The notes beneath the pieces are model-generated. The model made no database searches, had not been told where the DNA came from, and saw only the letters and a program-made list of their open reading frames with translations. The position numbers and the translations under genes were made by a program. Below, one piece after another: positions 23,924-24,262 of a DNA stretch of 64,000 nt (positions within the stretch are counted from its first letter, which is position 1; every line of letters begins with the position of its first letter). The stretch is from contig JBBDIE010000099.1 of assembly GCA_040880545.1 (NCBI GenBank), forward strand, positions 15,944 through 79,943, given 5' to 3'. Source of the stretch: Bacteroidales bacterium (lineage in GTDB: Bacteria; Bacteroidota; Bacteroidia; Bacteroidales; GCA-2748055).

Positions 23924-24262
23924 TGATTATCATAGAGTTAGTTATATGAAATTCATTGTGATTTCAATTTCATTTCAAATGTTTACCCATGTTTACCAAA
24001 AATGGAAATTCTTAAAAAAGATTCTCGATGATACCAGTTGAAATCATATTTGTTGGACTAGCAATCCAGGAAGGTTAGTCACCTGTTTAAAAAATTCATC
24101 CAGGAAATTGTGAGATTCGTTTTTTTATTCTAAATTTATATAGCCAACGTGAATTAACTCGTAATCTATTATGCCTAAAACCCTTATCAATCTCAATAAG
24201 TGGAAACCTAATTTGCATCTTTGGAGACATGTACAAGGTACATTTTTCCGAGGGGAGTACTG
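23924..24262 (+). repeat. Conserved ~340-bp non-coding leader, copy 1
   Basis: Bases 23971-24173 are identical base for base to 29278-29480 (203 bp). The flanks (23924-23970 and 24174-24262) are alignable with scattered mismatches. The leader contains GTTTACC x2 (23981, 23991) and ATCCAGGAA x2 (24064, 24098). Confidence 0.9.

Follow-up and report, generated by a model that had tools for sequence, protein, structure and literature searches.

In an uncultured Bacteroidales lineage, two operons encoding outer-membrane uptake proteins lie in tandem beside a gene for tRNA-Arg(CCT), and two NCBI MAGs of one "Bacteroidales bacterium" lineage encode these proteins. Within the 64-kb window, meaning the whole stretch of DNA that was analysed, the locus consists of the following features, with the strand given after the coordinates.

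23857-23873, plus: degenerate core, TTAACACCGACAGGAAT, a 12/17 match to the 3' 17-mer of tRNA-Arg, at the outer (distal) junction of unit 1
23874-23923, plus: spacer of unit 1, 50 nt between the core and leader copy 1, its length kept but its sequence barely so
23924-24262, plus (homology from ~23919): leader copy 1, the non-coding left-end module of unit 1, delimited by alignment and repeat finder
24360-29092, plus: cargo operon 1, encoding a 301-aa lipoprotein, a 191-aa protein, a DUF4249 protein and a 764-aa TonB-dependent transporter (TBDT), from Pfam
29127-29163, plus: right-end segment of unit 1, with a terminator-like hairpin, TAACATATTGATTGTTA; homologous to 33595-33631
29164-29180, plus: exact core at the junction of units 1 and 2, a 17-mer (20 nt with CTT)
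29231-29568, plus (homology from 29226): leader copy 2, containing the identical tract 29278-29480
29733-33561, plus: cargo operon 2, encoding a 178-aa protein, a DUF4249 protein and a TBDT, from Pfam and the gene calls of the sister MAG's locus (L001)
33595-33648, plus: right end of unit 2 and core, comprising a bidirectional terminator hairpin and the exact 17-mer at 33632-33648
33649-33805, minus: segment 'X', 157 nt between two core copies, kept beside tRNA-Arg in other metagenome contigs
33806-33878, minus: tRNA-Arg(CCT), from ARAGORN and Rfam, the 3' 17 nt of which (33806-33822 on the plus strand) are the repeated core

Read from the left, the order is degenerate core, spacer, leader 1, operon 1, 37-nt hairpin segment and core on the unit 1 side, followed by a 50-nt spacer, leader 2, operon 2, 37-nt hairpin segment, core, 157 nt, and the core joined to the tRNA body.

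The cargo is made up of TBDTs, DUF4249 proteins and unannotated small envelope proteins (Pfam, NCBIfam). A role as lids of non-SusC TBDTs has been proposed for DUF4249 lipoproteins (bioRxiv 10.1101/2023.03.17.533168), and the DUF4249 protein of operon 1 is a putative lid of this kind. Between the two units, the TBDTs share 36% amino acid identity and the DUF4249 proteins 25%, while the first small proteins have no detectable similarity. Judged from these sequences, the operons are ancient paralogues, which implies that the leader module did not descend along with them. The lineage is poorly sampled, and a protein search with the unit-1 TBDT gave at best a homologue of 38% identity. Small protein(s), DUF4249 and TBDT recur in this order in distant relatives, making this an ordinary Bacteroidota operon type, and the contexts of these distant homologues have the same gene order without the leader and without the tRNA core. 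The genes at 22121-23651, just upstream of unit 1, encode an outer-membrane barrel and a lipoprotein, ruling them out as a sigma/anti-sigma pair or an integrase.

Several homologous operons have repeats of other kinds around them. A distantly homologous cassette (L021; GCA_973310575.1, CCWRED010000252.1), encoding a 270-aa protein, a 194-aa protein, DUF4249 and TBDT, fills a 5189-nt contig, the ends of which (1-130 and 5060-5189) are imperfect inverted repeats of each other of ~75 nt; this makes it a TBDT unit bounded by repeats of another kind, possibly invertible or transposon-like. Upstream of other DUF4249-TBDT operons (L023, 2527-2843; L024, 480-620) are long inverted repeats with arms of ~21-23 nt, 70-105 nt apart, which resemble invertible-promoter architecture. 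Arrays of ~55-nt tandem repeats (…aaattttggacgaatttttgaaaaa…) flank a homologous operon on both sides in three AT-rich MAGs (GCA_0299357xx), as at L068 1-525 and 4575-5000, and L069 2275-2820 and 6870-7246. Many of the homologous TBDTs from the protein search are on contigs of 4.5-6 kb, and together with the ~55-nt arrays this suggests that TBDT operons bounded by repeats are common. A 410-aa reverse transcriptase (RVT_1; L019, 5347-6579) is encoded ~0.5 kb upstream of another homologous small-protein, DUF4249 and TBDT operon.

The preliminary description of this DNA had tied the leader to an att-like repeat, and this repeat proves to be the 3' end of a tRNA gene: the 17-mer GTAGCTCCAACAGGACT (plus strand) corresponds to the last 17 nt of tRNA-Arg(CCT). 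Exact copies begin at 29164, 33632 and 33806, giving three where 0.08 would be expected, and similarity to the tRNA ends at the same base in all core copies. Aligned without gaps at an offset of 5307, the degenerate core at 23857 falls in register with the exact one at 29164 (P = 4e-4 for at least 12/17 matches). The core is precisely where the sister MAG assembly is interrupted, between JBBDUW010000116.1 and JBBDUW010000032.1 (L001 and L071), one contig ending at 33822 and the other starting at 33804, with a 19-nt overlap; this could be an effect of the short repeat, or structural heterogeneity at the att site.

The right ends of the two units are also related, being identical at 23/37 positions (P = 3e-5), while both are unlike the chromosomal flank of junction 1 (23820-23856), which the right end of unit 1 matches at 11/37 positions. 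To the right of the core, junctions 1 and 2 are alike in spacer and leader, and to the left of the core, junctions 2 and 3 are alike. Between the right-end hairpins TAACATATTGATTGTTA and TAACCAAATGTTGGTTA there is a single compensatory change, from A-T to C-G (29131/29139 versus 33599/33607), which suggests that it is the hairpin, rather than its sequence, that is kept. This junction homology fits the pattern expected of one element family inserted in tandem at a tRNA gene with differing cargo. No integrase or other recognisable mobility gene was found in the units or the 64-kb window (Pfam, NCBIfam), and neither an integrase, a circular form nor an empty site was seen for the units. There were no remnants of decayed mobility genes either: the intergenic DNA comprises core, spacer, leader and hairpins, and its translations lack Pfam matches. 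The common left end, the common 37-nt right end and the lack of an integrase therefore point to two islets of one family at the tRNA gene, such that unit 1 (23874-29163) and unit 2 (29181-33631) would be tandem integrase-less islets downstream of tRNA-Arg(CCT), with mobility that is predicted from their anatomy.

The spacers were considered as possible decayed tRNA bodies, and inspection of their sequences ruled this out. At the same place in both units, ACAGGA at the end of the core has an inverted partner 26 nt into the spacer (23866-23871 with TCCTAT at 23898-23903 in unit 1; 29173-29178 with TCCTGT at 29205-29210 in unit 2); this partner, in an otherwise unconserved spacer, may be chance or a core-type site of a recombinase.

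The arrangement around the 157-nt segment recurs in three metagenome contigs (L030 8927-9114, L043 5690-5885 and L065 42-238), each having terminator, 17-mer, ~150 nt, terminator, 17-mer and an identical tRNA-Arg. These contigs and the segment itself (33649-33805, minus strand) have the common motif TTTG(T)ATTTGGGCTGCGGAA...CAGGTCCG-insert-AGTCCTGTTGGAGCTAC. The segment looks like a truncated tRNA-like remnant in which the acceptor and T-arm strands were kept; its variable hairpin would sit in the T-loop, exactly at the core border, with weak RNAalifold support.

Between the units, leader homology extends over ~23919-24262, with 25 mismatches in 344 nt (19 of the 25 being transitions), and every one of them falls outside a single tract. 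Within it, 23971-24173 equals 29278-29480 over 203 nt with no mismatches or gaps at the offset of 5307, by both pairwise alignment and repeat finder. The probability of a clean run of this length, given 25 mismatches in 344 positions, is ~5e-9. Identity at the offset of 5307 changes along the junction as follows.

Left of the core: 30%, with 28% expected at random
Core: 71%
Spacer: 42%, against 28% at random (P = 0.03), free of indels
Left flank of the leader: 81%
203-nt tract: 100%
Right flank of the leader: 83%
Beyond 24262: 25%

These values delimit the leader as a separate module whose outer borders are sharp, with a second, sharper regime inside it. The preliminary description, made from the sequence of the window, had noticed a 203-nt block identical in both copies, each beginning 50 nt from the att-like repeat, and these observations stand (23873 to 23924, and 29180 to 29231). 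Its further claim that non-coding DNA had here outlasted the adjacent genes is borne out by a leader 93% identical overall upstream of proteins at 36%, 25% and ~0%. Compared with the operons downstream of it, the leader is either far younger or far better kept. It is also non-coding, as had been supposed, with no conserved open reading frame (ORF) and no Pfam match among its conceptual translations: a 30-aa ORF at 24172 was rejected for a stop in copy 2, and one of 31/27 aa at ~23946 because its changes are non-synonymous only.

A repeated sequence that is AT-rich (31% GC, versus 42% for the 64-kb window) and breaks short-read assemblies might be a miniature mobile repeat, such as a MITE or IS fragment, or an artefact of assembly or polishing. 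Either origin is barely credible. The leader has no terminal inverted repeats, target duplications or transposase remnants, and no similarity to plasmids or phages (blastn) or to Pfam families, agreeing with the earlier view that it is not a fragment of an IS or a gene. An nhmmer search with a leader profile, covering the window and 70 other fetched loci, recovered only the two known copies, both in the window. As for an artefact, the structure is the same in two NCBI MAGs and in two independent Logan assemblies. Breaks in the Logan assemblies (k=31, from two runs) lie precisely 30 nt inward from the tract borders, with contig L003 starting at 24144, L026 starting at 29451, and both L002 and L003 ending at 29307; these contig ends confirm the identical borders in SRR27977663. 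An identical tract with breaks at its borders in independent assemblies is therefore not the artefact of one assembly.

The source of the perfect identity is best judged by comparison with a sister strain, represented by MAG GCA_040903685.1 (locus L001) from sample SRR27977661, over 17,025 positions. There are 24 differences between the strains, five of them in the leaders and four inside the tracts, at 24043 and 24060 in copy 1, and at 29409 and 29456 in copy 2. Hence the two tracts have four differences in 406 nt, whereas the 8,562 nt of cargo have one (Fisher P = 2e-5), so that between strains the tract varies more than any other part of the locus, rather than less. Each variant is copy-specific, such that the sister strain's two tracts differ at four positions, and the perfect identity therefore belongs to one strain rather than being fixed in the element. 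The variant at 29456 in SRR27977661 is supported by the start of Logan contig L002 at 24119, compared with 24144 for L003 from the other run. Sixteen of the 24 between-strain SNPs are in a gene for a hybrid two-component regulator (17270-21475; 0.38%), an excess that suggests recombination import or locally different selection.

Both marks of a conversion tract are found here: an overlong clean run within diverged homology, and a state that differs between close strains. Conversion between 98%-identical direct repeats 5.3 kb apart is expected far more often than point mutation. Under this reading, differences specific to each paralogue would be older than the strain split, and would have been erased in the window strain by gene conversion. 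Such conversion between direct repeats 5.3 kb apart would be recent and probably recurrent, and would account for the identity in place of base-by-base constraint. The preliminary description had left the choice between recent conversion and strong functional constraint, and the sister-strain SNPs favour the former for the 203-nt identity, and not the latter. It had also held that a very recent local conversion tract would undo its case for the leader, an outcome towards which the same polymorphism goes part of the way. The alternative is that the four variants are new substitutions in the sister strain, introduced from a third donor copy or by local hypermutation, but four changes would then have arisen in 406 nt, against a single one across 8.6 kb of cargo. 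With two copies in two strains to compare, the four polymorphisms could be polarised either way, as conversion in the window strain or as new variants in its sister. Against conversion, the sister-strain alleles are singletons, and conversion between two copies alone cannot create such alleles; if these are derived, either a third donor copy or excess mutation is needed.

The preferred reading therefore has two parts, tandem tRNA-Arg islets with a common promoter-bearing end, and a 203-nt identity resulting from recent gene conversion, to which we give a probability of roughly 0.5. The degenerate outer core (12/17) argues against the islets. The leader would either belong to the backbone of the element, or have been copied between the units later.

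The content of the leader bears on what this common end might do. Its internal features, in copy 1, are as follows.

23971-24173, plus: identical tract, 203 nt, a presumed recent gene-conversion tract
23979-23997, plus: ATGTTTACC C ATGTTTACC, a tandem phased at 10 bp that is a candidate direct repeat for protein binding
24064-24106, plus: two ATCCAGGAA nonamers (starts 24064 and 24098, 34 bp apart), the second abutting the putative -33 element
24108-24138, plus: putative Bacteroidetes-type promoter (TTG, 20 nt, TAAATTTA), directed into the operon, proposed from its motif match
24218-24254, plus: predicted hairpin in the common part of the presumed 5' UTR, from fold prediction

The short motifs listed in the preliminary description are all present, with GTTTACC at 23981 and 23991, the paired ATCCAGGAA, a T7 run at 24120-24126, and TAAATTTA. 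The Bacteroidetes sigma-A consensus comprises TTTG at -33 and TAnnTTTG at -7, separated by 19-21 nt; in the leader, ATTG (24107-24110) and TAAATTTA (24131-24138) match these at 3/4 and 7/8 positions across 20 nt. Exact TAnnTTTG is rare upstream of genes in the 64-kb window, and a motif scan found no better candidate from the leader to either start codon, the sole candidate lying in the tract. The ATGTTTACC tandem is confined, within the window, to the two leaders. With one ATCCAGGAA against the -33 element and the phased ATGTTTACC tandem near -150, the arrangement would be typical of activator or operator sites. Hence the leader module most likely supplies the operon promoter and upstream protein-binding sites, and with a common promoter-bearing module both operons would be driven alike. 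Two further ideas, that TGATTATCAT (23924-23933) resembles a Fur box and that the weak inverted repeats of the leader mark an inverton, were considered and found unsupported.

It is distinctly unlikely that the leader is purely cis-regulatory, kept near-invariant by selection for transporter co-regulation, with the tRNA fragments being old scars. The promoter-like motif in the tract is consistent with such a role, as is the nonamer directly upstream of the -33 element, and we take the direct repeats to resemble response-regulator sites (OmpR/PhoB-type boxes), a lead in the same direction. Furthermore, the leader flanks are 81-83% kept, compared with 42% for the spacer, which requires some constraint, or older conversion, in addition to the recent event. 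However, identity at 203/203 positions, including those between motifs, is not normal for regulatory DNA while the proteins are at 25-36%, and selection for invariance sits poorly with a tract more polymorphic between strains than any other part of the locus. Selection on regulation also leaves the common 37-nt right ends and in-register cores unexplained, and no regulator gene is adjacent.

The preliminary description had suggested a shared promoter followed by a structured 5' UTR; the promoter is plausible from its motifs, but the structured UTR fares poorly. A structured RNA, either an sRNA from one or other strand or a plus-strand 5' UTR resembling a riboswitch, would suit the long presumed 5' UTRs of about 215 and 290 nt. 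The hairpin at 24218-24254 retains its pairing through five one-sided, mostly transition, changes, none of them a double compensatory change; this is weak evidence when 19 of the 25 differences are transitions. Each unit has a further specific hairpin ahead of its start codon. Yet single-sequence folds are unremarkable (z-scores of -1.3 for the plus strand and +0.25 for the minus strand), and Rfam, both at the gathering threshold and at E<=5, returned tRNA and noise alone. The covariation analysis that had been proposed alongside an Rfam search was equally unfavourable, with none of the 82 pairs predicted by RNAalifold having a compensatory change, in an alignment of four sequences with two distinct copies and thus low power. 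With the predicted promoter, moreover, ~175 of the tract's 203 nt would precede the start site. Hence an RNA origin for the identity is very improbable.

A role in recombination is a more substantial alternative, if still a doubtful one. In this case, the leader and the 17-nt core would together form the attP-type site of a cassette, served by a tyrosine integrase encoded elsewhere and helped by an excisionase or bending protein, with insertion at tRNA-Arg, and with the ATGTTTACC tandem and the ATCCAGGAA pair as arm-type sites. The distance from core to leader is identical (50 nt) in both units despite a nearly randomised spacer, a hint, from these two sequences, that a protein complex recognises core and leader jointly, as with an attP arm. 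The 10-bp-phased tandem is ~105-125 bp from the core, a typical arm distance in lambda-type and NBU1-type sites. Both element ends are kept, the sister MAG contigs break exactly at the core with their 19-nt overlap, and there are further non-coding junctions at the same 17-mer in metagenomes. Nevertheless, the 64-kb window has no integrase, and searches of IMG/VR and the JGI metagenomes yielded no integrase-bearing related element at the 17-mer; where it occurs in these databases without the tRNA body, the matches are mostly coding and due to chance, with no integrase or leader-like arm. The repeated motifs do not exceed chance either, the 339-nt leader having two 9-mer repeat pairs where 0.6 would be expected (shuffle P = 0.15), and the second ATCCAGGAA nonamer is mutated to ATCCGGGAA in the sister strain's copy 2. 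In addition, the best-kept part of the leader is 100-300 bp from the core, farther than most arm sites. The roles of promoter and attP arm are not exclusive.

A bolder version, and an improbable one, is that the leader and 17-mer are the recombination site of an undescribed cassette system in uncultured Bacteroidales, whose integrase, encoded elsewhere, would capture, stack and exchange TBDT-lid operons with promoters of their own at tRNA-Arg(CCT). Neither of two exact words, searches with which would miss diverged copies, revealed the leader in other settings: ATGTTTACCCATGTTTACC gave six chance 19-mers only in 185,579 species genomes, and CCAGGAAGGTTAGTCACCTG gave none in JGI metagenomes and IMG/VR.

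On balance, the leader is probably a genuine, family-specific end of two tRNA-Arg-associated TBDT islets, carrying their promoter. If this reading is right, an uncultured Bacteroidales lineage packages uptake operons, comprising a TBDT and its lid, as minimal att-flanked units with a common promoter-bearing end, which would be a tidy route for both acquiring and co-regulating transporters. Were the cassette system real, it would represent an integron-like diversification of outer-membrane nutrient transporters. The leader would also provide a clean natural example of non-coding DNA that is identical through conversion, not selection, and a caution that perfect conservation should not be read as constraint. 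The practical value is modest, as the islet family is so far from one lineage only.

The nearest described relatives are the cis-mobilizable elements (CIMEs), which are bounded by att sites, lack genes for integration or transfer, and undergo tandem accretion at tRNA genes (PMC5704250). The two units are likewise stacked in tandem without such genes, between direct repeats of a tRNA 3' end, exact at 29164, 33632 and 33806 and only 12/17 at the outer 23857. However, CIMEs are defined as decayed ICEs or IMEs, whereas the units have no decayed mobility genes, and hold one intact operon flush between their ends. The use of a tRNA 3'-end site is shared with two integrating elements of the same phylum, Bacteroidota. 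NBU1 targets the 3' end of tRNA-Leu, with its own tyrosine integrase beside att, and arm-type repeats near the core. The 10K island of Riemerella anatipestifer, at tRNA-Arg, also has its own tyrosine integrase beside att, and a 53-bp repeat (PMC6764341). Unlike both, the units encode no integrase, and the Riemerella repeat is different in sequence as well as length.

In their compactness, each with one cargo and one recombination site, head to tail and dependent on a recombinase from outside, the units would resemble integron cassettes. Yet there is no IntI, attI or attC hairpin (nor any recombinase in the 64 kb), the repeat is derived from a tRNA, and each unit appears to bring its own promoter-bearing module of ~345 bp. 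Concerted evolution by gene conversion is familiar from duplicated tuf genes and rRNA operons. The leaders share with these an identical tract with sharp borders, set within older, diverged homology, and copies that differ between strains. Rather than homogenising genes, though, the conversion proposed here would have acted on non-coding DNA, upstream of paralogues that have themselves escaped homogenisation and become very divergent.
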